Shown here in pieces: positions 1,866-34,632 of a stretch of 64,000 nt of DNA (position 1 is the first letter of the stretch; each line of letters begins with the position of its first letter). The position numbers were made by a program, and so were the translations under genes. Below the pieces are notes generated by a model. It was not told where the DNA came from. It ran no database searches and worked only from the letters and a program-made list of their open reading frames with translations. This DNA comes from an uncultured Planctomycetia bacterium (GTDB taxonomy: Bacteria; Omnitrophota; Gorgyraeia; 2-02-FULL-51-18): the NCBI GenBank assembly GCA_964606485.1, contig CAZSGP010000003.1:130481-194480 (forward strand), given 5' to 3'.

Positions 1866-1981
1866 ACGAACCTCCCGTGGTCAAAAAAATATTTAAATAC
1901 TGTGCGTCCAAGATAACAGGTCATGCTTTGCCGCTAAATAAGGGGAATTACTATTTTTTTTATAGGGGCGACGCCTTATAT

Positions 1982-2007
1982 ATGCTTCCGGGATGCAGAC
2001 AGGGTTC
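1982..2007. repeat. Repeat family A, copy 1 (consensus 'ATGCTTCCGGGATGCATACTGGGTTC')
   Basis: 26/29 match to the copies at 3149, 4655 and 5487. It sits just upstream of the first cassette-like gene. Confidence 0.7.
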
Positions 2008-2038
2008 TGGTAGAATGGTCTGATCAACAGGAGACGCA

Positions 2039-2566
2039 ATGTTTAAAAAATTACTATTGAGTGTAATCACAGTTTTGATTTTGGTTGTAGCTTATGCAGC
2101 AACGAAGCCTTCGGAGTACATGGTGTTTCGGGAAGTTTCTATCAATGCACCAGCCGAAAAGATTTTTACACTGATCAACAATTCCCGTGAAACCGAGCGG
2201 TGGATGCCTTGGGCCGAGACCGATCCAAAAATGAAGATGAGCTATTCTGGTCCGGAGTCGGGAGTCGGATCGAAAGCCTCCTGGGAGAGTCCTGGGCAGA
2301 TGGGTGTCGGATCGTCGACGATTTCTGAAAGCGCTCCGAATCAGTCCGTGAAGTACAGTCTCGAATACACAAAGCCTTTTCAAATGAAACAGACAGCTGA
2401 GATATCGATTACCCCTTCAGGCGGCAAGAACGTTGTGCGTTGGTCGGTGTGGGGTCACAATAAATTATTCTGCCGTGTGGTTTGCCTATTTATGGATATG
2501 GATAAGATGGTGGGTGGAAGTTTTGAGCAGGGGTTGAATAAGCTTAAAGTTATTGCGGAGGGATAG
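2039..2566 (+). CDS. SRPBCC (polyketide cyclase/START-like) family protein with an N-terminal transmembrane helix
   Basis: Size and sequence pattern ('INAPAEKIF...W..W') fit the SRPBCC fold. The match is weak. Confidence 0.4.
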
Positions 2567-2567
2567 A

Positions 2568-2990
2568 ATGAACAATATGCTCAAAGAGTTTAGAGATTTT
2601 GCCGTCAAAGGGAACGTGATCGACATGGCGGTGGGTGTGATCATCGGCGCGTCGTTTGGAAAAATCGTAACATCGCTCGTGTCCGATGTGCTAATGCCTC
2701 CGATTGGCCGGATTGTCGGCGGGGCGGATTTTTCAAATTATTTTTTGCTTTTAGGCGAAGGTTCTTTTACGACGCCGGAAGCTGCCAAGGCTGCGGGTGT
2801 GGCGACGCTAAACTACGGCGTGTTCATTAATAATATTATCAATTTTTTAATCGTCGCTTTTTGCGTTTTTATGATGGTCAAGGCAATCAATATGGCCAAA
2901 AAGAAAGAAGCCGAAGCGCCAAAGCCCGCTCCGGTGACACCGCCGGATGTGCTGTTGTTACAGGAAATCCGAGATTTATTGAAAAAATAA
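2568..2990 (+). CDS. mscL: Large-conductance mechanosensitive channel MscL
   Basis: The N-terminus '[31 protein letters not shown]' is near-canonical for MscL. A GGAGGG ribosome-binding site precedes the ATG at 2568. Confidence 0.9.
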
Positions 2991-3098
2991 TCCTTCAAGA
3001 TCACAAATTGTGACCAGTTCGCTTAATTCATTTTTCGTCAGTTGAAACAAAAAATCAGATGGAAAGCGGCCGCTATTTCTTTTAACTGCTTGGTTTAT

Positions 3099-3148
3099 TC
3101 CTCCCACTACACAAGACGTCAGACCCTTCGATTTTTACCAAAAATATT
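3099..3148. repeat. Repeat family D, copy 1 (50 bp)
   Basis: 49/50 identical to 5367..5416. At that second copy the reverse complement supplies the GGGAGG ribosome-binding site and 5'UTR of the ORF6N gene. Here no ORF follows, so it is an orphan copy. Confidence 0.8.
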
Positions 3149-3182
3149 GATTTTGTATGCTTCCGGGATGCATACTGGGTTC
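3149..3182. repeat. Repeat family A, copy 2 (34 bp 'GATTTTGTATGCTTCCGGGATGCATACTGGGTTC')
   Basis: Identical to 5487..5520. It is followed by the near-palindrome 'CAGATCCGGGATCTG'. Confidence 0.85.
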
Positions 3183-3247
3183 TAATTCAGATCCGGGATC
3201 TGAACTGGGTTTTGGTTTACCTATCACCACCTCAGGGCTGAAATTTT

Positions 3248-3436
3248 ATGGAAGTAGTACTTCTTATAGCGCTTTGCGTATTAGGATTGTACTTATTTTT
3301 TCTGCCCTCGATAATTGCTTATAACAAACAAAAGAAGAGGGCGGGTATGATTTTCTTGCTCAATTTTTTTGTTGGAGCAACAGGCGTTGGCTGGGTGGTT
3401 CTTCTAATTTGGTCTTGCGGAAACGATAGCAGCTGA
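3248..3436 (+). CDS. Superinfection-immunity-like small membrane protein (Imm_superinfect-like)
   Basis: 62 aa with two transmembrane helices. The motif 'AYNKQKKRAGMIFLLNFFVGATGVGWVVLLIWS' matches the Imm family consensus (A..R.H.N..IF.LN...G.TGIGW..ALIW). Confidence 0.6.
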   Translation: MEVVLLIALCVLGLYLFFLPSIIAYNKQKKRAGMIFLLNFFVGATGVGWVVLLIWSCGNDSS

Positions 3437-3518
3437 TTGGTGATTACGATATTTTTTAAGTTGTGTGTACCTGGACATCGGGAATATCCGATCCAGACTT
3501 GATGGAGAAAAATGCAGA

Positions 3519-3884
3519 ATGTCTAAATCTGTAACGACATATTGGAATCCGTTGATGCCGGATAAAGCGTCTTCCTGGACGCCCGTTAAGGGGCTTGAGG
3601 GAATTGCTGAAGAGTTGACCCTGAGCATGGATTCCGAATCTGGCGAGTATACCCGCTTAACTCGCTTTCTCCCTGGAGCCGATACCACTTCCTTTGGTGG
3701 AAAAACCCACAATTATCCTGAAGAAGTTTTTGTTGTGAGTGGGCGATTGTTTGACGTGGCTTTCGGCAAATGGCTTGAACAGGGACACTACGCTAGTCGT
3801 CCTCCCGGTGAAATCCACGGACCATTTAGGACGGATATTGGTTGTGTGGTTTTGGAAGTTTCTTTTCCGGGCAGGAAAGACTAA
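3519..3884 (+). CDS. Cupin-domain protein (ChrR-like cupin)
   Basis: A small beta-barrel-type sequence with a GGAGA ribosome-binding site before the ATG at 3519. The family assignment is tentative. Confidence 0.4.
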   Translation: MSKSVTTYWNPLMPDKASSWTPVKGLEGIAEELTLSMDSESGEYTRLTRFLPGADTTSFGGKTHNYPEEVFVVSGRLFDVAFGKWLEQGHYASRPPGEIHGPFRTDIGCVVLEVSFPGRKD

Positions 3885-3914
3885 GGGAATCAGGCGACCT
3901 GATATTTAATTCAG

Positions 3915-3940
3915 CAATTAAGTTATGTGTCCCTGGAATT
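3915..3940. repeat. Repeat family C, copy 1 ('AATTAAGTTATGTGTCCCTGGAATT')
   Basis: Recurs at 4754, 7095 and 7911. Its reverse complement resembles family A (TTCC[A]GGGA.CATA), so A and C behave as imperfect inverted partners. Confidence 0.8.
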
Positions 3941-4066
3941 CCCGGACGTGGTCCGGTAAAAACGGTAAAATGAGAAAATGGTAAAAAGGCAAACCGTAAG
4001 TATTGCTATTGGTAGCGGGCTCAGGTATACTTATTGTAGTTACAAATATGACTACAGGAGATACAC

Positions 4067-4354
4067 ATGACTTTAGCGACGGAGCTTCTTAGAGCCAGAC
4101 ATGTTGGGGTGAGGGATTTAAAAGCGCATCTGTCAGAAAGAATTAAGACCCGAAAGCCGCTCATTGTCACTGAGCATGGGGAGCCTAAACAGGTCATAAT
4201 TCCTTATGACGTGATTGTTGGAATCGCAGAAGTGCTGCAGGAGCTAGATGATAAGGAGCTCGTTAAAGCAGTGCGGCTTTCCCGCGCAGCCACAAAAAAA
4301 GGGAATGGCATTCCTGTAGAAATACTTTTTAACAAGATGAGATCTAAAAGGTAA
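4067..4354 (+). CDS. Type II antitoxin, Phd/YefM family
   Basis: 95 aa. The N-terminus ('VGVRDLKAHLSERI...PLIVTEHGEPKQVIIPYD') is Phd-like. It lies immediately upstream of a RelE-like toxin. Confidence 0.7.
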   Translation: MTLATELLRARHVGVRDLKAHLSERIKTRKPLIVTEHGEPKQVIIPYDVIVGIAEVLQELDDKELVKAVRLSRAATKKGNGIPVEILFNKMRSKR

Positions 4355-4357
4355 ATC

Positions 4358-4651
4358 TTGAACTACCGGGTTATTTTTGCTCATCCATCGATTAAAAGAA
4401 ATTTTGAAAAAACCCTCCTAACCGCTTCAGCGGAGCTTCGAGATGCAATCGTGCGCAGCGTCGTCAATTTGTCGAATAATCCACGGCCCCATGGGGTCAT
4501 AAAAATAAAACCCCCTTTGGATATTTATCATTCTTTGGCCGGATACCGTATTCGCATTCAAAACTACAGAGTGTTCTACGATATTGATGAAGAAAGAAAA
4601 ACTGTGTCAGTGATTGCTTTAAGAAGGCGCAATGAAGGCACTTATAAATAA
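4358..4651 (+). CDS. Type II toxin, RelE/ParE family
   Basis: 97 aa, overlapping or abutting the antitoxin. The C-terminus 'YRIRIQNYRVFYDIDEERKTVSVIALRRR' is typical of RelE/ParE. It probably starts with TTG. Confidence 0.7.
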   Translation: MNYRVIFAHPSIKRNFEKTLLTASAELRDAIVRSVVNLSNNPRPHGVIKIKPPLDIYHSLAGYRIRIQNYRVFYDIDEERKTVSVIALRRRNEGTYK

Positions 4652-4654
4652 CCG

Positions 4655-4682
4655 CTTGCTTCCGGGATGCATACTGGGTTCC
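4655..4682. repeat. Repeat family A, copy 3
   Basis: Starts 4 nt after the RelE stop codon. Together with the hairpin at 4697-4733 and C copy 2 it makes a compact ~126-bp element. Confidence 0.8.
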
Positions 4683-4696
4683 AATTCGGGTGCACG

Positions 4697-4733
4697 CAGA
4701 TCCCGGATCTGGCCTTTGAAGATCCGGGATCTT
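4697..4733. repeat. Perfect 13-bp inverted repeat hairpin (AGATCCCGGATCT-N9-AGATCCGGGATCT)
   Basis: Read directly from the sequence. It forms the centre of the A-C element. Confidence 0.85.
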
Positions 4734-4753
4734 CACGAGGTCGGTGTGGCCCG

Positions 4754-4780
4754 CTAAATTAAGTGTGTGTCCCCGGAATT
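4754..4780. repeat. Repeat family C, copy 2 (variant 'AATTAAGTGTGTGTCCCCGGAATT')
   Basis: ~22/25 match to the other C copies. Confidence 0.75.
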
Positions 4781-4832
4781 TCTGCGGAATTTCACGGAAT
4801 TTCAAAATCATCGCAGAGGCTTGAACCCATAA

Positions 4833-5360
4833 TTAGATCGCATGAAACCCGATTGACCTCTTAGGTTTTGGAGCGGGCGTTTCTAGCAGTTCCCGAATCG
4901 CTTCAAAAACTATCTTAAACTGCTTATCATGTTTTTCGTATTTTTGCTCAAGCTCTTCAATTTTTTGTCGAATTAGTTCATTGCTTGAGATCATTTCCCT
5001 TAACTTAGTAAACGTGCGCATAATTTGAATGTTGACTTGAATCGCGCGTCTACTATTTAAAACCGAAGACAACATTAGGATGCCGTGTTCGGTAAAAGCG
5101 TGTGGCAGGTATCTCTGACCGCCCCATCTTGAGGTTCCAATTTGGAACCTCAAGATTTCAGCCTCATCCTTAGAAAGCTTAAACATGAAATCCGCAGGAA
5201 ACCGGTCACGGTTTCGAGCTACAGCCTTATTTAGTTCCTTGGTTCTGACTCCATAAAGCTCAGCCAATTCCTTGTCGAGCATCACTTTCTTACCCCTGAT
5301 GATGTAGATTTTATTTTCCACAGCAACACCTGAAATTGGTCCAAATACCTGCTTAGTCAT
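4833..5360 (-). CDS. ORF6N-domain (KilA-N/antirepressor-like) protein
   Basis: The block 'IRGKKVMLDKELAELYGVRTKELNKAVARNRDRFPADFMF...RYLPHAFTEHGILMLSSVLNSRRAIQVNIQIMRTF' is a strong ORF6N signature. The ATG at 5358-5360 is preceded by GGGAGG, which lies inside repeat D. Confidence 0.85.
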   Translation of the reverse strand: MTKQVFGPISGVAVENKIYIIRGKKVMLDKELAELYGVRTKELNKAVARNRDRFPADFMFKLSKDEAEILRFQIGTSRWGGQRYLPHAFTEHGILMLSSVLNSRRAIQVNIQIMRTFTKLREMISSNELIRQKIEELEQKYEKHDKQFKIVFEAIRELLETPAPKPKRSIGFHAI

Positions 5361-5366
5361 AAATAA

Positions 5367-5416
5367 TCCTCCCACTACACAAGACGTCAGACCCCTCGAT
5401 TTTTACCAAAAATATT
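5367..5416. repeat. Repeat family D, copy 2
   Basis: Direct copy of 3099..3148. It contains the ORF6N ribosome-binding site and leader on the minus strand. Confidence 0.8.
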
Positions 5417-5486
5417 TTCAACATTTTTTAAACTCTTAACGTTTTGAGAGGGGAAGATGAGTTGGTGCACCTCAATCTCGGTAGTT

Positions 5487-5520
5487 GATTTTGTATGCTT
5501 CCGGGATGCATACTGGGTTC
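5487..5520. repeat. Repeat family A, copy 4
   Basis: 34/34 identical to 3149..3182. Confidence 0.85.
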
Positions 5521-5522
5521 AC

Positions 5523-5590
5523 GTGGTCCGGTCTACTCGGCCTTGCGGTCAGAGGAGCAAGTAGTCAGTTGGAGACTTGACCCCTTATTT
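5523..5590. repeat. Repeat family B, copy 1 (68 bp)
   Basis: 67/68 identical to 6857..6924. It contains an internal hairpin (CTACTCG...CAAGTAG). Confidence 0.9.
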
Positions 5591-5622
5591 ATTTGTATTT
5601 GCAGCATGAAAAAGGAGATAAA

Positions 5623-6012
5623 TTGAAAAAAACTATACCGTTTATACTAGTTATATTTGTTTGCCGGATGGGATGGGCGGAAAGTATCGTTTTTGAAGGT
5701 GCGCCGGATATCAAGGGTGTAAATACTCTGCAGGATGTATTTAATGAGCCGGTCAATGATGAGAACAAGAAAACTTCACGCCTAGTAATAACCAAGGAGA
5801 ATGGCCAATATATTTGGTTCTCTAGAGAAAAAAATAAGCTTCGATTTTATAAAGATGATAATTTTATATATTTTGTTCGGGAGGATAGACCGGATTATAT
5901 AAAAATTTCAAAGCCGCCCCAATCGGAAGGAAAATATATTTATATGGAACATATGTCCGATGGTATGAAGACGCTCACTTATTGGGGGAAATCCGATAAA
6001 TTAGAATTATAG
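5623..6012 (+). CDS. Hypothetical secreted protein (~129 aa)
   Basis: TTG start with an AAAGGAG ribosome-binding site 5 nt upstream. It has an N-terminal signal-like hydrophobic segment. No recognisable domain. Confidence 0.45.
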   Translation: MKKTIPFILVIFVCRMGWAESIVFEGAPDIKGVNTLQDVFNEPVNDENKKTSRLVITKENGQYIWFSREKNKLRFYKDDNFIYFVREDRPDYIKISKPPQSEGKYIYMEHMSDGMKTLTYWGKSDKLEL

Positions 6013-6091
6013 GCAGCGCAACGGGCAAGAAGTGGTTTATGTAAAACTCTTAAGAGAAGGGAGGTAAGGTCGAGCAAATCGACATAGTTTT

Positions 6092-6733
6092 ATGTCTCAA
6101 GAATATTTCGAAAAAATCAACGAAGCTCTTGAAATTCAGAAAAAATATTCAGCGCTAAAAATACCGGTTTTTGATCAGATTGGTTCTCAAAGCGCTTTAA
6201 GTCCCAATTTTTGGATTAAAGGACAAGCCCAGAACTACATTTTTGCGAGCACGCATTTATCTGGGCAGATTATCGAGGCTCTCCAAAAAGCACATCTTCA
6301 ACTTGCAGTTGTAGGAAGCAGAACGCTTTTTGAAATGGCAGTAAATGCGACTTATATTTACAATCATCCAAAAAAAAGAAAAAGACTTTCTCCAATTCAA
6401 ATGAGAGAAGTTTGTAAAAAAATTGTTTGGTTGGCAAATAAAAGGCGAGGACATGTAAATCATTCCAAAATCGAAGGAACTATCAAAAGTCGATTAGAAT
6501 CGATGGGAATGGGATCTTCATATAGAACTACCTACAGAGTTATGAGCGACTGGGCGCACTTACAATCACGGGCAATTCAGATTTCTGCAGATCCACAAAA
6601 GGCCACGAAATTTGGCATACAAATAGCAGAAGTTACCTTACGAGGCCTCCACAACACTTTCGATTCGATATGCACATATTTCAAGTACGCGCTTGATCCG
6701 GCGTTGGAGCAAGAGGTGATTGGCTTTAAGTAA
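6092..6733 (+). CDS. Hypothetical protein (213 aa), mostly helical by composition
   Basis: Clean ORF in the cassette region with no family recognised. The segment 'KRRGHVNH' loosely fits an R-x4-6-H (HEPN-like) motif, but this is very tentative. Confidence 0.4.
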   Translation: MSQEYFEKINEALEIQKKYSALKIPVFDQIGSQSALSPNFWIKGQAQNYIFASTHLSGQIIEALQKAHLQLAVVGSRTLFEMAVNATYIYNHPKKRKRLSPIQMREVCKKIVWLANKRRGHVNHSKIEGTIKSRLESMGMGSSYRTTYRVMSDWAHLQSRAIQISADPQKATKFGIQIAEVTLRGLHNTFDSICTYFKYALDPALEQEVIGFK

Positions 6734-6856
6734 GACGCTAGGTAACACCGATATCGAAAAGCGGGCGGCTTATAGAGCATATTTGATGCAACCTAGGCGA
6801 AATGAAATGCTACTGGAGATGAAAAGCTAACGTGTCCCCAAAAGGGCGTTTCGGAG

Positions 6857-6924
6857 GTGGTCCGGTCTACTCGGCCTTGCGGTCAGCGGAGCAAGTAGTC
6901 AGTTGGAGACTTGACCCCTTATTT
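6857..6924. repeat. Repeat family B, copy 2
   Basis: Direct repeat of 5523..5590. The two B copies bracket the two-gene module 5623-6733. Confidence 0.9.
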
Positions 6925-7094
6925 TCAAAAAACGAGCTGCAAAAATTGGCGCAAATGGTGTGTTGCTAACAACCACAGGAACTCAGACATCTGCGATGGC
7001 TGGTGGTTATGGGACTGGCGCGATGTGGGTTATACCAGTAAATGCTAAAGTTGTTAAGGGGACGGCAATTTTTGTAAGTGAGGAGTAGTGGTTT

Positions 7095-7120
7095 AAATTA
7101 AGTTATGTGTCCCTGGAATT
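7095..7120. repeat. Repeat family C, copy 3
   Basis: 25/25 match to copy 1. Confidence 0.85.
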
Positions 7121-7140
7121 ATGTGCCGAGGTTGACGAGG

Positions 7141-7809
7141 ATGTCAAATGTCAAAGACCAAACTTCCCCTTATTTTATGAACAAATGCATTAGGTTTGCG
7201 GTCGGAGCAAAAACAGGCCTAAAATCCTCAATATATAACATCACTGTCTGTAAAAATGATATTTACATCTCTGCAGGTATATTAACGAGAGAGACAAAGG
7301 TTAGCATTCATGAAAGCGGTTGTGGGCAATGGTCATACAGATCTGAGGTTTGGAAGGATCGGAAAAAGCCAAATAATGAAAGACATATAGTAAAATGGAA
7401 CTCCCTAATACCTACCGATCTAAAAGCAGTAAATGTTCTTCGAATACGAATACCACATACAACATTAACTCAATATTCTGCACCCTCATCAGAAGATAAG
7501 GTTAAATGGGTTTCCGGGTTACTGTCAGGAACATATCAATTTGATTTATGTCTAACACCACCATCTCAAACAGATCCAGCGCGAGACAGAAGTGACTTAC
7601 CACATGAAGTACTAGGTACATTACAATTGAATGACAAGCGGTGGTTGGTTGTATTTTACCAAGGAACCCCATCGTTAAGTATCCCGAAAGAAGATATCTT
7701 ACGAGAAATAGGAAATAAGGATATTAACCTTCAGGGAACGGGGGGTATGTGTCTTTTTGGTGCTAGTGATGATGGTGTCCCTGTAATGATTGAATGTGTA
7801 TTAAAATAA
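7141..7809 (+). CDS. Hypothetical protein (~222 aa)
   Basis: ORF with no recognisable domain, bracketed by C copies 3 and 4. Confidence 0.4.
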   Translation: MSNVKDQTSPYFMNKCIRFAVGAKTGLKSSIYNITVCKNDIYISAGILTRETKVSIHESGCGQWSYRSEVWKDRKKPNNERHIVKWNSLIPTDLKAVNVLRIRIPHTTLTQYSAPSSEDKVKWVSGLLSGTYQFDLCLTPPSQTDPARDRSDLPHEVLGTLQLNDKRWLVVFYQGTPSLSIPKEDILREIGNKDINLQGTGGMCLFGASDDGVPVMIECVLK

Positions 7810-7910
7810 GAGTTACACACATGACCTACACCAACAAAACACAACTAAAAAATAATGACCAAACCCCCTTTTAAATTCAGCAAAATCAGGGGACGCAATA
7901 CTCAATTCGA

Positions 7911-7936
7911 TAATTAAGTTATCTATTCCCCGGAAT
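7911..7936. repeat. Repeat family C, copy 4 (variant)
   Basis: The core 'TAATTAAGTTAT...CCCCGGAAT' matches. This copy is more diverged. Confidence 0.6.
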
Positions 7937-7980
7937 CCACGAAATTCATATTTGCACAGTACACGTTAATATGGTATTAT

Positions 7981-8277
7981 TTGACCGTGATCATCAGCTT
8001 TAAAGACCAGGCAACGGAAGACATTTTTAATGGAATATCTTCCAAGAAGGCTCTGAAGTTTCCTGTGGTTGTTTGGCAGGTGGGGAGTCGGAAGCTGGAC
8101 ATGATTAACGCGGCGCACGAACTAAAAGATCTTATGATTCCGCCCGGAAACCGCCTGGAAGCATTAAAAGGTGACTTGAAGGGATACCACAGCATTCGTA
8201 TTAATGAAAAATACAGGATTGTGTTTAAGTGGCTTGAGGCCAATGCATCTGAAGTCGAAATTAAAGATTACCACTAG
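7981..8277 (+). CDS. higB: HigB toxin (RelE/ParE superfamily, 'plasmid maintenance system killer')
   Basis: 98 aa. It is the HigB-type toxin of a HigB/HigA module and is encoded upstream of its antitoxin, as in higBA. The start codon (TTG or GTG) is uncertain. Confidence 0.7.
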   Translation: MTVIISFKDQATEDIFNGISSKKALKFPVVVWQVGSRKLDMINAAHELKDLMIPPGNRLEALKGDLKGYHSIRINEKYRIVFKWLEANASEVEIKDYH

Positions 8278-8285
8278 GGGGTAAA

Positions 8286-8558
8286 ATGATACCAACCAAT
8301 CGAAAACCAAATCATCCGGGGGAAATTCTATTAAAAGAGTTTCTGCAGCCGATGGGCTTAACTCAATTAGAGCTGGCAAAAAAAATGCATGTGCCCGTTC
8401 AAAGAGTCAACACGCTTATCAATGAAAAAAGAGGTGTGACTGCGGAGACGGCTATTTTGTTGAGCGAAATATTGAAAACCTCGGCAGAATTCTGGATGAA
8501 TTTGCAGGCAACATATGATCTTTATGAGGCGCGGCACCATCTCAAGATAGCGGCTTAA
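8286..8558 (+). CDS. higA: HigA antitoxin (XRE-family HTH)
   Basis: The N-terminus 'HPGEILLKEFLQPMGLTQLELAKKMHVPVQRVNTLINEKRGVTAETAILLSEIL' is canonical for HigA/VapI. Confidence 0.85.
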   Translation: MIPTNRKPNHPGEILLKEFLQPMGLTQLELAKKMHVPVQRVNTLINEKRGVTAETAILLSEILKTSAEFWMNLQATYDLYEARHHLKIAA

Positions 8559-8562
8559 CCCC

Positions 8563-9978
8563 ATGCGTCACCACAGCCGCTCGCTGCTAATCACCTTAAC
8601 CACCGTTTTGCTTTTGACTTCGCGAGTTTTTGCCCTCGAACCCGAACCCACCACCAAATCCCTTTCGCCTCGGGCGTATTTTAAAACCGCGTTGAATGAA
8701 ATCAATAAAGCCCAAGCTTCGGTTGATCTGTGCATGTATCTGATTAGTTTTTACCCCAAAGAAACAGACTCGCAGGTTTATCAGCTCATGAGCGCGCTTG
8801 CTAAGGCCAAAGCGCGTGGCGTCGCGGTGCGGGTGATTCTGGACCAAGATCCCACTCAAAAAAATTTGGCAGCGGCACAGTTTTTGAAACAGGCGGGTGT
8901 CCCGGTGTTTTGGGACTCGGAACTTGTGACCACGCACACCAAAGCGCTTGTGATGGACGGCGAAACGGTGCTGGTGGGTTCAACGAATTGGTCGGAGAGC
9001 GCATTTTCGCGCAACAATGAATCAAATGCGTTCATTCGGTCGAAAGAGTTTGCCGAAGACTTGCTTGCGGAATTTGCCAAAATTAAAACGGTGGAGGCGG
9101 CGGATCCGGATGGACTCGTGGTGAAGATTCCGGTGCATTTTTTGAGCGCGGACATCATGGGTGAGATGGTGAACGAATCCGACGACCGCGCGATGGACAC
9201 GTACTTGTGGCTTTTGAAGGAAGGAAAAAGTGAGCTCGATTATGAAAAACTCGCCGAGGCACTGGGACTTTCAACGGAGGAGCCCATCGGTTACCGCAGG
9301 CAGATCAACAAGACGCTTGAGAAGCTTGAGCAAAAATATTTATTAATCCAAGTGACGACCGAATACGGCAAGCCGGCTCAAGTGAAAATGGACAAACCAA
9401 ACGGCGGGGATTTTAGTGTGCCGCTCGATTACTGGACGCTTGGCTGGGACCGCGAGCTCTCATTTCCAGCGAAGGTGATGCTTCTTCTGAATCGGTATTA
9501 TTCCCAAGATTCGTCCAATTACCCCAAGTGGCGCAAGTCGGTCGCCGGGATTGCCGAGGAGCGGGGGATTTCTCAAGATTTTGTGAGCACGGGCACGATG
9601 AGTTTGCGGCGTTGGAATCTTATTGAAGTGCGTTATGACTCGCTATACGCGGATGATGCGCCGCGCGTTGCGAATGAATACACACCGAAGCCGCTTTATG
9701 ATCGTAAAGAGGAAGAGGTGAAGCTGAGGGCGCTGGTCACTCTCTATGGAAAAGAGGGGGTCGAGCGCGCCCGCGCTGCGGCGAATGCGGTTTATGAAGA
9801 TCACGACATGGATGGAGTGGAAAAGCTCGTCCAACTTGAGAATCGTTACAGTCTAAACATTGTGCAGGCGGCGCTTAAAGTCATCCTTGAGAAAAGCCCC
9901 GACAATCCGAAGCGCTCGCTGGCGTACCTGATCCGCACCATTGAGCGAATGGGCGAAAAAGGATTTCTCGCCGAATAA
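8563..9978 (+). CDS. Secreted phospholipase-D-like (single HKD motif) protein with a ~280-aa C-terminal region of unknown function
   Basis: N-terminal signal peptide. One HKD motif, 'HTKALVMDGETVLVGSTNWSESAF'. The C-terminal half has no family I can recognise. Confidence 0.65.
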   Translation: MRHHSRSLLITLTTVLLLTSRVFALEPEPTTKSLSPRAYFKTALNEINKAQASVDLCMYLISFYPKETDSQVYQLMSALAKAKARGVAVRVILDQDPTQKNLAAAQFLKQAGVPVFWDSELVTTHTKALVMDGETVLVGSTNWSESAFSRNNESNAFIRSKEFAEDLLAEFAKIKTVEAADPDGLVVKIPVHFLSADIMGEMVNESDDRAMDTYLWLLKEGKSELDYEKLAEALGLSTEEPIGYRRQINKTLEKLEQKYLLIQVTTEYGKPAQVKMDKPNGGDFSVPLDYWTLGWDRELSFPAKVMLLLNRYYSQDSSNYPKWRKSVAGIAEERGISQDFVSTGTMSLRRWNLIEVRYDSLYADDAPRVANEYTPKPLYDRKEEEVKLRALVTLYGKEGVERARAAANAVYEDHDMDGVEKLVQLENRYSLNIVQAALKVILEKSPDNPKRSLAYLIRTIERMGEKGFLAE

Positions 9979-13763: not shown

Positions 13764-14321
13764 TTGCTGCTTGCCTTTCATAAACCTTACGGCGTTTTGT
13801 CTCAATTCACCAAAGAAGCGCCGGATCATCACACGCTTGCGGAATTTGGATTTCCTAAACACGTTTATCCGATTGGAAGGCTCGACTGGGACAGCGAAGG
13901 CTTGCTTTTACTCAGCAACGAACGCGACTGGACCGAGTGGCTACTCAATCCTAAAAACCGGCATGAGCGGGTGTATCACGCGCAAGTGGACCGGGTGGTG
14001 ACGCCGGAAGCGATTGCCCAGCTCCAAAAAGGGGTGTTGATTGACGGCGAAATGACGCGGCCTGCCAAAGCTAAAATTTTAGAGAACCCCGGTTACCCCG
14101 AGCGCGTGCCGCCGGTCCGGTTTCGCAAAACCGTTCCAACGAGTTGGCTCGAGCTCAAACTCACCGAAGGAAAAAATAGACAAGTGCGGCGCATGACGGC
14201 GGCGGTGGGTTTTCCGACGCTGAGACTTTTGCGTGTGTCGATTGGGACGATTCCGCTCGGGGATCTGGCGGCAGGGAAATGGCGGGAGCTTTCGGAAAAA
14301 GAACAGTTATCTTTACGATGA
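13764..14321 (+). CDS. rRNA pseudouridine synthase, RsuA/RluE-type
   Basis: Motifs 'LLAFHKPYGVLSQFT' and 'PIGRLDWDSEGLLLLSNE' with the catalytic Asp. Starts with TTG right after the fhs stop. Confidence 0.75.
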   Translation: MLLAFHKPYGVLSQFTKEAPDHHTLAEFGFPKHVYPIGRLDWDSEGLLLLSNERDWTEWLLNPKNRHERVYHAQVDRVVTPEAIAQLQKGVLIDGEMTRPAKAKILENPGYPERVPPVRFRKTVPTSWLELKLTEGKNRQVRRMTAAVGFPTLRLLRVSIGTIPLGDLAAGKWRELSEKEQLSLR

Positions 14322-14378
14322 ACCAACCTCGCACTGTAGTTTTGTTCGATTATCACCACCTCCGGGGTGGTATTGGTT

Positions 14379-15137
14379 ATGACTAGGCTGCATACGCACC
14401 CAAATTTTTACATCGATACGGATTACCGTGTGCTTTTTGAAGATGATGCGCTGCTTGTGATCAATAAGCCAGCGCCGCTCGCGGTTCATCCGGTAGGCTC
14501 GTACGTTGAGCTGAATATTCACTCGCTTGTCAAAAAAGATCCGCGCTGGGAGGGGATATCCATGAAAATGGTGCACCGGCTCGATGCAGAAACGAGCGGC
14601 GTGCTGGTGATGGCTAAAACGTATGAGGCGGCGCGAAGCCTAGGAAAACAATTTTTAGCGGGAACGATTGAAAAAGAATACGAAGCGGTGGTGTTTGGGA
14701 CACCGAACCCTTCTGAAGGCTTGATTGATTTTCCGCTCGGCCATGACGAGAGCTCTGGATTTCAAAGTGTGCGCACGCATGATGCGGAAAATGGGGAGAA
14801 GGCACAAACTCAGTTTAAAGTTTTAAAATCGGGCGCGGAATATTCCAGAGTACTGCTCAAGCCTTTAACCGGACGCACGCATCAACTGCGCGTGCACATG
14901 GCGCTCATCGGACATCCGATTGTGGGGGATAAAATTTACATCGATTTGAAAATTTTTGCCAAATACGTGGTGGAAGGGTTAAACGACGAGATGATGGAGA
15001 GACTGAAGCTTAAGCGTTTGGCGTTGCACGCGGGGAAAATTACGTTTACACACCCGCATACGCGCGAACTTCTCAGTGTTAGCGCCCCACTTCCTAAAAT
15101 TTTAAGTGATTTTGTCGAGTTTTCGGGGCTTTCCTAG
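14379..15137 (+). CDS. RluA-family pseudouridine synthase
   Basis: Catalytic motif 'HRLDAETSGVLVMAKT' and 'GRTHQLRVHMA'. Confidence 0.8.
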   Translation: MTRLHTHPNFYIDTDYRVLFEDDALLVINKPAPLAVHPVGSYVELNIHSLVKKDPRWEGISMKMVHRLDAETSGVLVMAKTYEAARSLGKQFLAGTIEKEYEAVVFGTPNPSEGLIDFPLGHDESSGFQSVRTHDAENGEKAQTQFKVLKSGAEYSRVLLKPLTGRTHQLRVHMALIGHPIVGDKIYIDLKIFAKYVVEGLNDEMMERLKLKRLALHAGKITFTHPHTRELLSVSAPLPKILSDFVEFSGLS

Positions 15138-15244
15138 AGCGAAAATACCTGAGATAGCGCTCGCTTTTGAGAGCGGAAGCTGTTAGAATGCCCCCAACGC
15201 AATACAGGCTCTGTCGTTTTTAATGCAGTCAATAATTTTGAAAA

Positions 15245-15284
15245 CCGCGAATCCTAAACTAAAAGGGTTCGCGGATTTTTTTTG
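15245..15284 (+). terminator. Rho-independent terminator after the rluA-like gene
   Basis: Stem CCGCGAATCC/GGTTCGCGG followed by ATTTTTTTT. Confidence 0.6.
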
Positions 15285-15306
15285 TTTGGCTCACCCCGGA
15301 GATCAA

Positions 15307-16302
15307 ATGGTGGAAATAGGCCGCAGTAAAGAAATTATTGATCAGCTAGAAGTTTTTATGGGCACCCAACTTGGGATGCTCAAGTCCGTTGATGAGTCCT
15401 GGCAGGCGTGTGATTTTTTGCCGGATATGTCCAAAGACAATTGGGTAGACGGTGTGAAGGATTTGCGTTTGCAATCCGCCGGGTTATCGGACGATGCGCT
15501 GGTGGTTTTAGCGGGAAACATGGTCACCGAAGAAGCGTTGCCGTCGTACCAAACCTGGATTAATCGCAACGAAGGAATCAGCGATGAGACCGGTGCGAGC
15601 GATAGCTCGTGGGGACAGTGGTCGCGTGGATGGACCGCCGAAGAAAAGCGCCACGGTGAACTGCTGAGTCACTATCTTTATCTGACGGGGCGGGTAGACA
15701 TGCGCTCGGTGGAAGTGACGATTCAGCATTTAATCCGTAATGGATTTGATGTGAAATCGGACAGAGATCCGTACCGTTCAATGGTTTATGTTTCGTTTCA
15801 AGAGCGAGCCACCAAAGTGTCGCACGCGAATATGGGTCGTCTAGCCGAGCGCTGCGGGGATAGTCGGCTTGCGAAAATTTGCTCGATGATTGCATCTGAC
15901 GAAGCGCGTCACGAAGAAGTCTATAAACGCGTGTTTGAGAAGGTGATTCAGCTGGACCCCAGCGAAGCGGTGATTGCTTTTGCATTTATGATGAAACAAA
16001 AAGTAGTGATGCCGGCGCGACTCATGTCCGACGGAAGCGAACGCGATCTTTTTACGAATTTTGCCATTGTGGCACAGAGAAGCAAGGTTTACACGACGAC
16101 CGACTACGCGGGAATCGTTTCACATTTGTTGGAATTTTGGAAAATCGGGTCGCTGACAGGCTTGTCAGCGGAAGCGACCGAGGCGCAAGAATTTTTGTGC
16201 GGGCTGCCGGAACGATTTTTGTCCAAGGCAGAAAAAACAGAGCGAATCATCTCTAAAATCCCCAAAGAACCGTTTCGTTGGATTTTCGAAAGGAGCGCGT
16301 AA
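15307..16302 (+). CDS. Soluble acyl-ACP desaturase (ferritin-like di-iron, DesA/plant stearoyl-ACP desaturase type)
   Basis: Di-iron ligand motifs 'EEKRHGELL' and 'DEARHEEVY', plus 'QERATKVSHANMG'. The start is set at the ATG 5 nt after GGAGA. The ATG at 15223 lies upstream of the terminator and was rejected. Confidence 0.75.
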   Translation: MVEIGRSKEIIDQLEVFMGTQLGMLKSVDESWQACDFLPDMSKDNWVDGVKDLRLQSAGLSDDALVVLAGNMVTEEALPSYQTWINRNEGISDETGASDSSWGQWSRGWTAEEKRHGELLSHYLYLTGRVDMRSVEVTIQHLIRNGFDVKSDRDPYRSMVYVSFQERATKVSHANMGRLAERCGDSRLAKICSMIASDEARHEEVYKRVFEKVIQLDPSEAVIAFAFMMKQKVVMPARLMSDGSERDLFTNFAIVAQRSKVYTTTDYAGIVSHLLEFWKIGSLTGLSAEATEAQEFLCGLPERFLSKAEKTERIISKIPKEPFRWIFERSA

Positions 16303-16495
16303 CCGTTTATGGCGAGGAGATTTTCTGTGAAATCTAAAAAGATATCGGCATCCAGCAAGGGGAGGCGCTGCAAATTTCCTTCTTGCAAGAGACTGCTTAG
16401 CATTTATAATCACGAAACAAACTGTCATATTCACTTGAATAAAATGGCGCGCAAGGCGCACGCCATGAACCCGGCTTAAAAATAAGGAGCAACCC

Positions 16496-16636
16496 ATGAA
16501 ACCTCAACAAAAAACAACCTTCGTTCAAAAGCGCGTCGTTAAAATCGGAAAAGCCGAAAAAGTTTTTAATGCCGGTGAAAAGATGAAAGCCAAGCTCGTC
16601 CGCGATAAAGAAGCACAAGCCAAAGCCTCCGCCTAA
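16496..16636 (+). CDS. Small basic protein (46 aa), hypothetical
   Basis: Strong AAGGAG ribosome-binding site 5 nt before the ATG. Lys-rich. No family assigned. Confidence 0.35.
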   Translation: MKPQQKTTFVQKRVVKIGKAEKVFNAGEKMKAKLVRDKEAQAKASA

Positions 16637-16663
16637 ACAACGGTTTATACTAATAATAATAGT

Positions 16664-16694
16664 TGTTTAATTAACAATCTATTTGTTGTATAAT
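16664..16694 (+). promoter_or_regulatory. Putative sigma70-type promoter (TTGTTT-N19-TATAAT) for the small secreted peptide gene
   Basis: Perfect TATAAT at 16689-16694 with TG immediately upstream. The -35 box is weak and the spacing is long. Confidence 0.3.
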
Positions 16695-16738
16695 GCTTAA
16701 CGTTGTTAGGATTAATTCATCTACACGTAGGAGGTTTG

Positions 16739-16912
16739 ATGCGTAAGAATACTCTGTTGTTTGTGGCTCTGTTCATTGTTGCGGCGGCGTTTTGTGCCAA
16801 CGCGTTTGCGGCGGATGGCGATACTTGCGCGCTCGGCGGTTTTTTTAATTCCGTGGGCGGCTTTTTGTACAACGCGCTTCCCTGGAACTGGGGAAATTGG
16901 TTCGGTAAATAA
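16739..16912 (+). CDS. Small secreted Gly/Trp-rich peptide (57 aa)
   Basis: AGGAGG ribosome-binding site and a signal peptide 'MRKNTLLFVALFIVAAAFCANAFA'. The mature ~30-aa peptide is 'ADGDTCALGGFFNSVGGFLYNALPWNWGNWFGK'. Confidence 0.5.
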   Translation: MRKNTLLFVALFIVAAAFCANAFAADGDTCALGGFFNSVGGFLYNALPWNWGNWFGK

Positions 16913-16983
16913 GCACGATCTTTTGTTTTGTTAAACGGGGGGCATGGGAAACCATGCTCCCCGTTTCCTTTCCTGTCTGATTT

Positions 16984-17574
16984 TTGGTAAAATACCCGCC
17001 TATGAATTTTTCTAAGACGAGTCTTCAGAACTATTTAAAACTTTTGGGATCTAGCGCTCCTGCACCCGGCGGCGGAAGCGGGGCAGCACTGGTCTCGGCA
17101 ACGGGTGTGGCGTTGGCGGAGATGGTGGCGGCGATCAACGAGAAAAAGCCGAAGGCGGTAGGCGGTAGGCAGAATTCGAAGGAGCTAAAAAAAATTAAGA
17201 ACAAACTTCTGTCGCTTGTGACCAAAGATGCCCAGGTGTTTGAAAAAATAAAAAAGGCGTTTGCGAAGGATCGTAATAGTGTGGAATACCAGAAAGCCTT
17301 GAAAATGGGGGCTGAGAGTCCGCTTGAGATTTGCGAGTGGTGTTTAAAGGCGGCGAAACTCGCGGTGCTCGAAAAAGAACGCACGAGCAAATGGTTGATC
17401 AGTGATTTGAAAGAGTCGCTCATCTTGCTTGAAGCAGGATACCGCTCGGCACGGCTGAATGTTGAAATTAATTTAAACGCAGTAACGGACCATCATTTTA
17501 AAAATAAAACGGCGGCACAACTTGAAAAAATTGGAAACGCTCTTCATGAATACCAAACAAGCCTCGCTGCTTGA
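16984..17574 (+). CDS. Methenyl-THF cyclohydrolase / formimino-THF cyclodeaminase-domain protein
   Basis: Motif 'SSAPAPGGGSGAALVSATGVALAEMV', typical of the FTCD C-terminal/FchA fold. The start may be at 17002. Confidence 0.75.
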   Translation: MVKYPPMNFSKTSLQNYLKLLGSSAPAPGGGSGAALVSATGVALAEMVAAINEKKPKAVGGRQNSKELKKIKNKLLSLVTKDAQVFEKIKKAFAKDRNSVEYQKALKMGAESPLEICEWCLKAAKLAVLEKERTSKWLISDLKESLILLEAGYRSARLNVEINLNAVTDHHFKNKTAAQLEKIGNALHEYQTSLAA

Positions 17575-23783: not shown

Positions 23784-24774
23784 AAAAATCATACGGATTG
23801 GATCGCGGGGAAGCTTGCTTGCGCTCGCGCAAAGTAAAAATATTTTAAAAATACTTCAAAAAAAGTTTAAACAGTACCGATTTAAACTGGTGATCATTAA
23901 AACAACCGGTGATGAATTTCAGAGCGTTGAGCTTTTTAAGACGGCGAATATTGGTGTTTTTACGAAAGAATTGGAAAAAAAGCTGCTGGCTAGACAGATT
24001 GATATTGCGGTGCATAGCCTAAAAGACTTGCCGACTAATCTAGCGCCAGGGCTCGTGCTTGGCGGCTACCCGAAGCGCGAAGATTCACGCGATGTGCTGG
24101 TCACGAAAAAAAATTATACGCTTAAAACCATTCCTGAAGGCGGCGTCGTGGGGACGGGGAGTTTGCGGCGGCAAAGGCAGATTAAACTCGTGCGGCCGGA
24201 TTTAAATGTGGTGGCGATTCGTGGGAATTTGAATACGCGGATTCTGAATGTGATCCGCGAAAATCAGTACCACGGGGTCGTGGTCGCGCGCGCGGGTCTC
24301 GTGCGGGTTAAAAAATATTTGAAATACGCATGGCCGATCCCGCCAAAAATTATGATGACGGCGGTAGCGCAGGCAGTGCTCGGAGTGCAGGTGCGCGCAG
24401 AGGATGAAGTCAGCTTAAAAATGGCGCAGAGCTTGAATCACAAGCCGACCGAACTTGCGGCGAGAATCGAGAGACACTTCTTAAACGCGCTCGAAGGCGG
24501 TTGCCGCGTGCCGGTAGGGGTCGAGACAAAGATTAGTGGAAAAAATATTTCGCTCAAGGCCGCGGTGTTTTCGGTGAAGACGAAGGCGGTGATTCGGGGG
24601 GAGATTAAGGGATCTGCTGAGAAATTGGAAGTGTTGGCTGAGACGCTAGCAAAGCAAATGCTTAAAAAAGGGGCGGACGGGTTTTTGAAGGAAGCTAGGG
24701 AAGGCGTTGCCACTCAAGAACACAGGTTCGGCAGGGAAGTGTGGGGAAAACCCATGGGGCGAGAAGTTTGGTGA
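23773..24774 (+). CDS. hemC: Porphobilinogen deaminase (hydroxymethylbilane synthase)
   Basis: 'IRIGSRGSLLALAQS' N-terminus. The annotated 3' end and stop lie inside a 33-bp direct repeat, so the C-terminal ~15 aa are repeat-encoded. Confidence 0.85.
   Translation: MAPKKIIRIGSRGSLLALAQSKNILKILQKKFKQYRFKLVIIKTTGDEFQSVELFKTANIGVFTKELEKKLLARQIDIAVHSLKDLPTNLAPGLVLGGYPKREDSRDVLVTKKNYTLKTIPEGGVVGTGSLRRQRQIKLVRPDLNVVAIRGNLNTRILNVIRENQYHGVVVARAGLVRVKKYLKYAWPIPPKIMMTAVAQAVLGVQVRAEDEVSLKMAQSLNHKPTELAARIERHFLNALEGGCRVPVGVETKISGKNISLKAAVFSVKTKAVIRGEIKGSAEKLEVLAETLAKQMLKKGADGFLKEAREGVATQEHRFGREVWGKPMGREVW
24742..24774. repeat. Direct repeat copy 1 (TGGGGAAAACCCATGGGGCGAGAAGTTTGGTGA) at the 3' end of hemC
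   Basis: Repeated at 26111..26142 with a single 1-nt indel. Confidence 0.9.
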
Positions 24775-26110: not shown

Positions 26111-26142
26111 TGGGGAAACCCATGGGGCGAGAAGTTTGGTGA
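26111..26142. repeat. Direct repeat copy 2
   Basis: 32/33 identical to 24742..24774. This copy is intergenic. Confidence 0.9.
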
Positions 26143-34573: not shown

Positions 34574-34596
34574 TTTAAACGCCATCTTAACTTTAA

Positions 34597-34632
34597 CGGA
34601 TAAGAGCAGCTGCTCTTATCCGTTTTTGTTTT
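34597..34632 (+). terminator. Rho-independent terminator
   Basis: Perfect 13-bp palindrome CGGATAAGAGCAG/CTGCTCTTATCCG followed by TTTTTGTTTT. Confidence 0.85.

Follow-up and report, generated by a model that had tools for sequence, protein, structure and literature searches.

What kind of element sets short, recurring palindromes between small accessory genes at almost every gene junction? This question is raised by an islet of 6.6 kb on the chromosome of an uncultured Omnitrophota bacterium, lying between positions 1980 and 8560 of a 64-kb stretch of contig CAZSGP010000003.1 (the whole stretch is called the window below). The islet holds small accessory genes, including toxin-antitoxin (TA) pairs, with hairpin-forming repeats between the gene modules. 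An earlier note on this DNA had read it as a sedentary, recombination-driven cassette array of the integron type or a cluster of attC sites without an integron-integrase (CALIN). We found that the modular and recombination-marked character of the locus stands, as seen in a TA-rich islet of low GC content, in co-oriented palindromes and in footprints of rearrangement, whereas its identity as an integron attC array or CALIN does not. We propose instead that the repeats named A and C form a new lineage-specific family similar to repetitive extragenic palindromic (REP) sequences and their hairpin-forming doublets (REPINs), situated at a synteny break in an accessory TA/defence islet that is decaying, with the arms of the palindromes as recombination joints. 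We hold this reading tentatively, at a probability of roughly 0.45.

Repeats A and C belong together as arms of one palindrome family

Four repeat families, A to D, had been described between 1980 and 8560, and all of them were recovered at the positions given, far beyond chance. Family A (TGCTTCCGGGATGCATACTGGGTTC) has four copies, at 1983, 3158, 4657 and 5496, with 0-2 mismatches and all on the + strand; the number expected from shuffled sequences is 0, and there is no further copy in the 64 kb. Family C (AATTAAGTTATGTGTCCCTGGAATT) turned out to be slightly larger than the four copies first counted, since two exact copies (3916 and 7096) are accompanied by three diverged ones of 72-76% identity (3454, 4756 and 7912) and by a further degenerate copy, read from the sequence, at about 6828-6844. 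This gives four A arms and five or six C arms in total. Family B consists of two copies of 68 nt with 99% identity, as described, and family D of two copies of 53 nt rather than 50. Every copy of the four families is on the + strand and within 1983-7938, and the rest of the window has none. Likewise, no A/C repeat was found to the left of the first A arm (A1), either in the window or in the next 1.6 kb outside it (L207).

A and C together make up one imperfect-palindrome family, A as its left arm and C as its right, in agreement with their earlier description as imperfect inverted partners. Three complete units (U3, U4 and U6) of 55-124 nt are present together with six or seven half units, and there is approximately one A/C unit per gene junction, at a spacing of 0.3-1.6 kb. 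The doublets and the single arms (A1, A2, A4, C1, C* and C4) are all intergenic, so that the family has the form of REP sequences, namely extragenic imperfect palindromes occurring as inverted doublets and as single arms. U4 (4657-4780, 124 nt) forms a long imperfect hairpin (-30.1 kcal/mol, z -4.0) with a perfect 13-nt arm pair, AGATCCCGGATCT/AGATCCGGGATCT, at its centre, which is the hairpin that had been placed at 4655-4780. U3 forms a hairpin on both strands (z -2.1 and -2.4), and the fold of U6 is weak. These two short units are 74% identical over 58 nt, and their left arms are diverged A arms. The A arm also folds alone, with a stem GTATGC/GCATAC, a loop TTCCGGGAT and a TGGGTTC segment behind it (z -3.4); no significant fold was obtained for family B. 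In addition, the 25-nt cores of the arms are identical among three A copies and between the C arm of U3 (C2) and C4, amid unrelated flanking sequence.

As to the genes on either side, U3, U4 and C4 begin 0-7 nt past stop codons (U3 directly after that of the cupin gene), C1 begins 17 nt past one, and for three A arms the distance to a start codon downstream is 32-90 nt. Three A...C pairs, including A2-Imm-C1 and A4-...-C4, enclose genes. Three tandem copies of CGGAATTTC, at 4774-4803 and with 10-11-nt spacing, directly continue the C arm of U4 (C3), and every C arm ends with GGAAT(T); this motif may be bound by a protein. Family B starts with GTGGTCCGGT, a motif also found after C2.

No attC sites and no linked integrase were found in the islet

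In its general architecture the islet is like the integron arrays and CALINs described by Cury et al. (2016, PMC4889954). At least two palindromic sites lie on one strand less than 4 kb apart; they are co-oriented imperfect palindromes of attC-like length with bulged bases, placed between small and mostly co-oriented genes, and the islet has TA modules and no nearby integrase. The sites themselves are different. A search of 1900-8600 that required the AAC/GTT triplets, allowed at most one mismatch and set the R''/R' spacing at 50-150 nt found no complementary RYYYAAC...GTTRRRY pair in any intergenic repeat; the sole box pair in this interval is inside the coding sequence of higA (8356-8465). 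The attC covariance search that the earlier note had called for was performed with a small home-made model (R2), not the 96-site model of IntegronFinder, built from nine class 1 attCs of plasmid integrons and having 79% of its cells paired on the canonical R/L-box structure. This model recovered three attCs from outside its training set (59.1, 40.8 and 28.7 bits), whereas nothing in the islet scored; its best match in the window reached 10 bits (E 4.6) at 20142.

The statement that the window has no intI, xer or transposase gene was also confirmed. A Pfam scan of 45 open reading frames (ORFs) of the window detected no integrase and no transposase, and six-frame tblastn searches of the window and of the adjoining 1.6 kb on its left (L207) with IntI1 and XerD gave nothing at E<=1. 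Both queries were controlled: that for IntI1 matched plasmid intI1 at 100% identity, and that for XerD picked up a xerD-like gene in another locus (L074, 1.6e-55). Membership among integron attC arrays or CALINs was rejected on these grounds: no box pairs, a negative attC model and no tyrosine recombinase in any frame of the window. A canonical CALIN or a sedentary integron remnant with classical attC sites has the general architecture alone in its favour. The absence of R''/R' box pairs, the negative model with positive controls and the failure to find an intI gene or fragment in the window or L207 all contradict it, as do the single arms that make up half of the sites, the conservation of the arms past the R-box end and the genes inside three A...C pairs, which recombination between attC sites cannot yield. 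We regard this explanation as extremely improbable.

A REP-RAYT system is present in other Omnitrophota

The earlier note had named generic REP or miniature inverted-repeat transposable elements (MITEs) as what would speak against its own interpretation; by analogy with relatives, this is the better-supported reading. Another Omnitrophota metagenome-assembled genome (MAG), L036, has a repeat-bounded mini-array of 2.8 kb (6426-9170) directly upstream of the same IMPDH-like gene as in the window. It contains a PEGA lipoprotein, membrane proteins, ORF6N and orphan ORFs, its repeat differs from A/C, and no recombinase is found within 21 kb. This repeat (X family, GGTACCNNTTCCAAAAGTGCSGGG) was found in 111 stretches of metagenome sequence, among them six separate places on a single contig of 1.11 Mb. 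Its 31 distinct hairpin doublets have 98.4% of cells paired and five pairs with compensatory changes; about 45% of the copies are single arms, and nearly all copies are intergenic. In at least eight loci, X arms bracket in inverted orientation a 195-aa IS200-like protein, with the inverted arm beginning at its stop codon. This protein belongs to PF01797 and matches the NCBIfam model of the REP-associated tyrosine transposase (RAYT; NF047646) with E 4e-20 and 72 bits, slightly under the 80-bit cut-off, and several of its homologues are named Omnitrophica transposases in NCBI records.

The X family and the 195-aa protein make up a textbook REP/REPIN-RAYT system as defined by Bertels and Rainey (PMC3116915), and REP-type arms pile up in small accessory-gene arrays in Omnitrophota. 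A RAYT gene flanked by the same repeats is thus found for the X family and not for A/C in the window, and the layout of arm, gene and inverted arm is common to the X-RAYT loci and to A2-Imm-C1 and A4-...-C4. Yet other dispersed palindromic families were found in further Omnitrophota loci. A by-eye alignment of A/C with X (TTCCGG..TGC..GGGTTC..AAT) was dropped, as it had no statistical support.

A highly conserved REP/REPIN family with the arm GGTACCNNTTCCAAAAGTGCCGGGTTC brackets IS200-like RAYT genes across JGI metagenome loci on Omnitrophota-type contigs (L096-L206); examples of RAYT loci are L121 135-891, L133 3243-4067, L199 5598-6329 and L210 2860-3613. In many GGTACCNNTTCCAAAAGTGCCGGGTTC hairpins CCGGG faces CCTGG, which produces a G-T mismatch. 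Matches to the hairpin arm are found 12 times inside long ORFs, and in L162 the hairpin reads in frame through a long helicase-like ORF as ...VPLPKVPGS....

The islet is decaying and bears rearrangement footprints

The islet is decaying. Two genes are truncated at joints, namely a copy of ORF6N and a lipoprotein-like gene of which a fragment remains behind the second B copy, and the D+A and B blocks are recent duplications. The ORF6N remnant is cut off exactly at its own internal palindrome (TCACAAATTGTGA, 3001-3013), beside the stop codon of mscL.

A scaffold of the same species with about 2x coverage (L085, ENA ERZ4216102) runs from the cupin gene through the left arm of U3 and the C core into the 29 nt that follow C4, and then ends. 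This is possibly the junction expected from recombination between C2 and C4 with deletion of 3941-7120. The scaffold also joins a novel hairpin- or terminator-like sequence of 108 nt, ending with CAATTAACTTAA, to window position 2455 inside the SRPBCC gene. The scaffold segments concerned are 620-800 and 2200-2330, compared with 2423-2455, 3916-3940 and 7096-7149 in the window. Both junctions could be due to chimeric reads or assembly effects.

The intact ORF6N gene has a perfect internal palindrome of 31 nt (5126-5156). ORF6N coding sequences hold a perfect palindrome of 25-31 nt that encodes L-R-(S/F)-Q-(F/I)-(V/G)-T-S, and outside the window such palindromes are located at 7901-7931 and 8226-8258 in L036, at 8219-8245 and 8518-8543 in L092 and at 8229-8253 in L088. 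The two halves covary between homologues (GGTTCCAA.TTGGAACC vs GGTCACAA.TTGTGACC), and several genomes have a second palindrome just past the stop codon, about 270-300 nt away. ORF6N proteins form a very large family, with 7422 members at E<1e-30, and in other genomes the gene is usually a solitary insertion among housekeeping genes, with no array.

A proposed REP/REPIN-like family and its alternatives

In the reading that we favour, the islet, in which A/C fills nearly every gene junction, would have been acquired horizontally, and the single arms would be decayed units. A HUH/Y1 transposase (RAYT-like), encoded elsewhere and acting in trans, would have seeded or copied the A/C units, which would fold as hairpins on one DNA strand; the near-identical 25-nt arms would then provide joints for the duplication, deletion and truncation of modules. 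That A/C itself depends on a RAYT and is dispersed in the genome would be expected by analogy with the relatives' system. The uniform orientation could, we infer, come from a strand-specific single-strand mechanism or from selection relative to transcription, the genes of the window being mostly on the + strand. A/C and REP/REPIN-RAYT systems have in common short extragenic imperfect palindromes in local clusters with decayed single arms, an inverted-arm hairpin doublet as a replicative-looking unit (about 55-125 nt for A/C; 71 and 110 bp for the REPIN doublets of P. fluorescens; Bertels and Rainey 2011, PMC3116915) and the lack of target duplications and of a linked enzyme, and such a system is present in relatives of the same phylum.

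Several observations weigh against this reading. The 10-11 arms are all within 6 kb and in one orientation, with none in the other 58 kb of the window or the 1.6 kb leftward, whereas copies elsewhere and in both orientations are expected of a dispersed REP family. The family was seen in this islet alone: searched as exact or degenerate patterns, A and C had 0 matches in JGI metagenomes, IMG/VR and the GTDB representative genomes; when the islet was compared by blastn with PLSDB and INPHARED, coding parts of the cupin and mscL genes were all that matched; and profiles of the two arms detected no copy in relatives' loci amounting to about 1.4 Mb. The window encodes no RAYT homologue, and two candidate homologues followed up outside it belonged to other samples. 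Unlike the arms of a REPIN, A and C are not the same sequence, as they differ by two single-base indels and C is without the GGGTTC segment, and the genes enclosed by the three arm pairs are not RAYT genes. Furthermore, the best match of an X-hairpin covariance model to A/C was that of a generic hairpin (E 0.06), and a profile of the X variant arms gave E>1. Since A/C and X have no detectable similarity, the support from relatives is one of analogy and not of homology.

The confinement of the units to the islet, about one per gene junction and on one strand, would suit an integron analogue of Omnitrophota in which A..C units are folded or duplex sites for a recombinase encoded elsewhere, the recombinase and sites being neither classical IntI nor attC, and modules are inserted and excised singly. 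The 55-124-nt units with bulged bases resemble attC geometry, the low-GC cargo consists of TA modules and small orphan genes, and U3 and U4 show one compensatory difference (A-T vs C-G). The possible precise C2xC4 deletion junction would also fit, but its scaffold has 2x coverage, and it could equally well result from homologous recombination or from chimeric reads. The cupin gene recurs beside a tRNA gene in another genome and context (L095, 3030-3971), between two copies of a short hairpin: a variant of 88% identity over 120/121 aa (80% at the nucleotide level) follows enolase-DivIC-tRNA(CAT), with two X-type arms before it and repeats other than those of the window as its bounds. However, the DNA homology between the two cupin loci ends at the gene and excludes the sites. 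In addition, the sites have no crossover-type core conserved throughout, six or seven of them are half sites, genes lie inside three A...C pairs, and the 64 kb encode no recombinase. We consider such a non-canonical cassette array unlikely, though the likeliest of the alternatives. A related and somewhat less probable idea is that hairpin repeats are portable cassette ends in Omnitrophota, where any gene between a left arm and an inverted right arm, like the RAYT gene in relatives or Imm and the B-unknown-DUF5677 block in the islet, would move as single-stranded DNA, cut out and inserted anew by a HUH transposase acting in trans or by another recombinase. The L095 cupin is flanked by two near-identical copies of the hairpin GGCCCGGTTCTTAAYTGAACCGGGCTTTTTT, as if it had been inserted at or with the hairpin.

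It is also conceivable that the repeats have no function in mobility and are leader or 3'-untranslated segments, that is, regulatory or RNA-stabilising hairpins, spread by local tandem duplication and deletion. The D+A and B duplications show that local duplication occurs, and the positions of three A arms 32-90 nt upstream of start codons and of several units or arms 0-17 nt past stop codons point the same way. On the other hand, the 25-nt arms stay identical amid unrelated neighbouring sequence, and two complementary arm forms make hairpins. Promoter and terminator scans were at chance level, and the Rfam search, which gave only a tRNA-Met at the gathering threshold, returned nothing meaningful in the islet at E<=5. 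This makes the explanation doubtful. Still less is to be said for A and C as terminal inverted repeats of a DDE-type insertion sequence (IS) with the transposase elsewhere, the short units being MITEs and A2-Imm-C1 and A4-...-C4 cargo-carrying derivatives (mobile insertion cassettes). For some 22 nt, A can be aligned with C in reverse complement (TTCC-GGGA..CATA..), empty and gene-bearing intervals are bounded by the same arms, and the intergenic 55-125-nt units with inverted ends and occasional passenger genes are like MITEs and Correia/ERIC-type palindromes. In contrast to these, U3, U4 and U6 have imperfect inverted ends and no target-site duplications readable at them, the arms differ by the two indels, the elements are clustered in uniform orientation with many solo ends, and no transposase or matching IS end was found in the window or the collections. 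To our knowledge, there is no cognate IS for the A/C ends. We judge this origin improbable.

In Acinetobacter plasmids, modules that are often TA pairs or small ORFs are bounded by short pdif sites of alternating orientation for XerC/D, with the recombinase encoded elsewhere. The islet modules are similarly bounded by short repeats without a linked recombinase, and if one C was lost with the ORF6N truncation, A and C, as opposite orientations of a site for the host XerCD, alternate strictly and every module lies between inverted sites. Read by eye, however, the layout of dif, with a 6-8-nt spacer between 11-nt arms that are partly palindromic, is missing from both A and C; A reads TGCTTCCGGG-ATGCAT-ACTGGGTTC, with arms 4/9 complementary, and C shows nothing comparable. 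The sites are not dif-like 28-mers, three of the 'modules' would be empty hairpins of 30-75 nt, the context is chromosomal, and the window has no xer gene. A Xer/pdif-type array is therefore very improbable.

Gene content and setting of the islet

The GC content of the islet is 36-47%, compared with about 50-53% in its flanks. All 12 gene calls of the earlier note hold, and Pfam supported their identities (SRPBCC, MscL, Imm_superinfect, Cupin_7, Phd, ParE/RelE, ORF6N, HigB and an HTH antitoxin), with a weak match to DUF5677 and two islet ORFs without a Pfam hit. The left part of the islet has the order A1, SRPBCC-MscL, ORF6N remnant with D, A2, Imm, C1, cupin, U3, Phd-ParE, which continues in the right part with U4, ORF6N with D, A4-B1, an unknown gene and the DUF5677-like gene, C*-B2, gene fragment, C4, an unknown gene, U6, HigBA and a PLD-family gene (Table 1). 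Nearly all of the window's genes are read from the + strand.

Table 1. Genes and repeat units of the islet (window coordinates).
Feature	Position	Strand	Basis
A1, single A arm with 2 mismatches; forms the islet's left edge, the start codon of SRPBCC following after 32 nt	1983-2007	+	
SRPBCC gene	2039-2566	+	Pfam PF10604
MscL gene	2568-2990	+	Pfam PF01741
ORF6N pseudogene remnant with internal deletion	2976-3107	-	translation compared with full ORF6N
D copy 1, 5' leader/ribosome-binding-site region of ORF6N (minus-strand gene), attached to the remnant	3096-3148	+	96% identical to 5364-5416
A2 arm (3158-3182) with inner hairpin TTCAGATCCGGGATCTGAA (3186-3204)	3158-3204	+	
Imm_superinfect-family 62-aa membrane peptide, between A2 and C1	3248-3436	+	PF14373, E 1e-14
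C1, single diverged C arm (76%)	3454-3478	+	
Cupin_7 gene	3519-3884	+	Pfam
U3, complete short doublet: left arm GGGAATCAGGCGAC, right arm C2 (3916-3940)	3885-3944	+	
Phd-like antitoxin	4067-4354	+	PF02604, below cut-off
ParE/RelE toxin	4358-4651	+	PF05016
U4, complete long doublet (A3, 4657-4681; arms of the central hairpin, 4698-4732; C3, 4756-4780), then three tandem CGGAATTTC motifs (4774-4803)	4657-4803	+	
ORF6N gene, intact	4833-5360	-	PF10543, E 1e-34
D copy 2, ORF6N leader	5364-5416	+	
A4 arm (5496-5520) fused directly to B1 (5523-5590)	5496-5590	+	
Orphan ORF, secreted-type, 126-139 aa	5593-6012	+	no family hit
DUF5677-like ORF, 213 aa	6092-6733	+	weak DUF5677 match only
C*, degenerate C arm (TAACGTGTCCCCAAAAG, 6828-6844), then B2 (6857-6924) at the usual spacing	6828-6924	+	
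Truncated gene, 3' fragment behind B2 (...GANGVLLTTTG...AIFVSEE*)	6927-7088	+	ORF 6960-7088 and in-frame reading; no Pfam hit
C4, single C arm with the same sequence as C2 (100%), located 7 nt past the stop codon of the gene fragment	7096-7120	+	
Orphan ORF, 222 aa	7141-7809	+	start as called on Logan contig; no family hit
U6, complete short doublet: left arm AATCAGGGGACGCAATACT, right arm C5 (7912-7936)	7884-7938	+	
HigB toxin	7981-8277	+	PF05015
HTH antitoxin (higA)	8286-8558	+	PF01381
PLD-family (DrmC/NucT-like) protein, 471 aa	8563-9978	+	PF13091; weak DrmC models

Both TA pairs are ordinary, and no repeat follows the HigB/HTH pair. The PLD-family gene starts 4 nt past the higA stop codon and is missing from relatives; it is probably the right-hand part of the accessory region. 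Its product matches DrmC/NucT models weakly. The DrmC/NucT-like domain covers only residues ~45-175, and the long C-terminal part is without a family hit. ORF6N matches the single-gene defence candidate PDC-S05 of PADLOC (E 5.5e-61), and for the ORFs at 5593-6012, 6092-6733 and 7141-7809 nothing informative was found in Pfam, NCBIfam, PHROGs or PADLOC, the weak DUF5677 match aside. A role in defence or toxin immunity, which the earlier note had suggested for the cargo, is plausible for part of it on the basis of these sequence matches. At 90% clustering, all islet proteins except the cupin are singletons.

In 80 relatives, synteny extends only from CusF (10357)/IMPDH/FTHFS rightwards, and 1-10.3 kb is not conserved. 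The islet, probably together with the PLD-family gene, is therefore at a synteny break, and because nothing left of 10.3 kb is conserved, the presence or absence of single modules cannot be scored in these relatives. The best matches of the IMPDH-like protein next to the islet share 82-85% identity with it, and almost all of them are labelled as Omnitrophota or 'uncultured Planctomycetia' MAGs.

Elsewhere in the window, a segment with two pseudouridine synthases and a fatty-acid desaturase (13764-17100) is missing from otherwise syntenic relatives and forms a second small insertion. A 31-nt direct repeat (GGGAAAACCCATGGGGCGAGAAGTTTGGTGA, 97% identical) is located at 24744-24774 and 26112-26142, 1.4 kb apart in the core region, and a perfect 30-nt palindrome (AACGGATAAGAGCAGCTGCTCTTATCCGTT, 34595-34624) follows a DUF5666 gene; both are unrelated to A/C.

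Implications

A caution to be drawn from this islet is that TA genes with co-oriented palindromes between them do not suffice for calling an integron. As a by-product, it brought to light a widespread and highly conserved REP-RAYT system in Omnitrophota. If hairpin repeats did act as portable cassette ends, integron-like arrays of TA and defence genes would be built in this phylum without an integrase, and the interest of the locus would rise sharply if mobility of modules at the arms were shown. If the REP/REPIN-like reading is right, A/C would be a further lineage-specific family of the REP kind, in a phylum for which metagenomes are almost the only source of knowledge. The concentration of REP repeats in small accessory arrays leads to a testable idea, namely that REP arms may help to assemble or shuffle gene modules.

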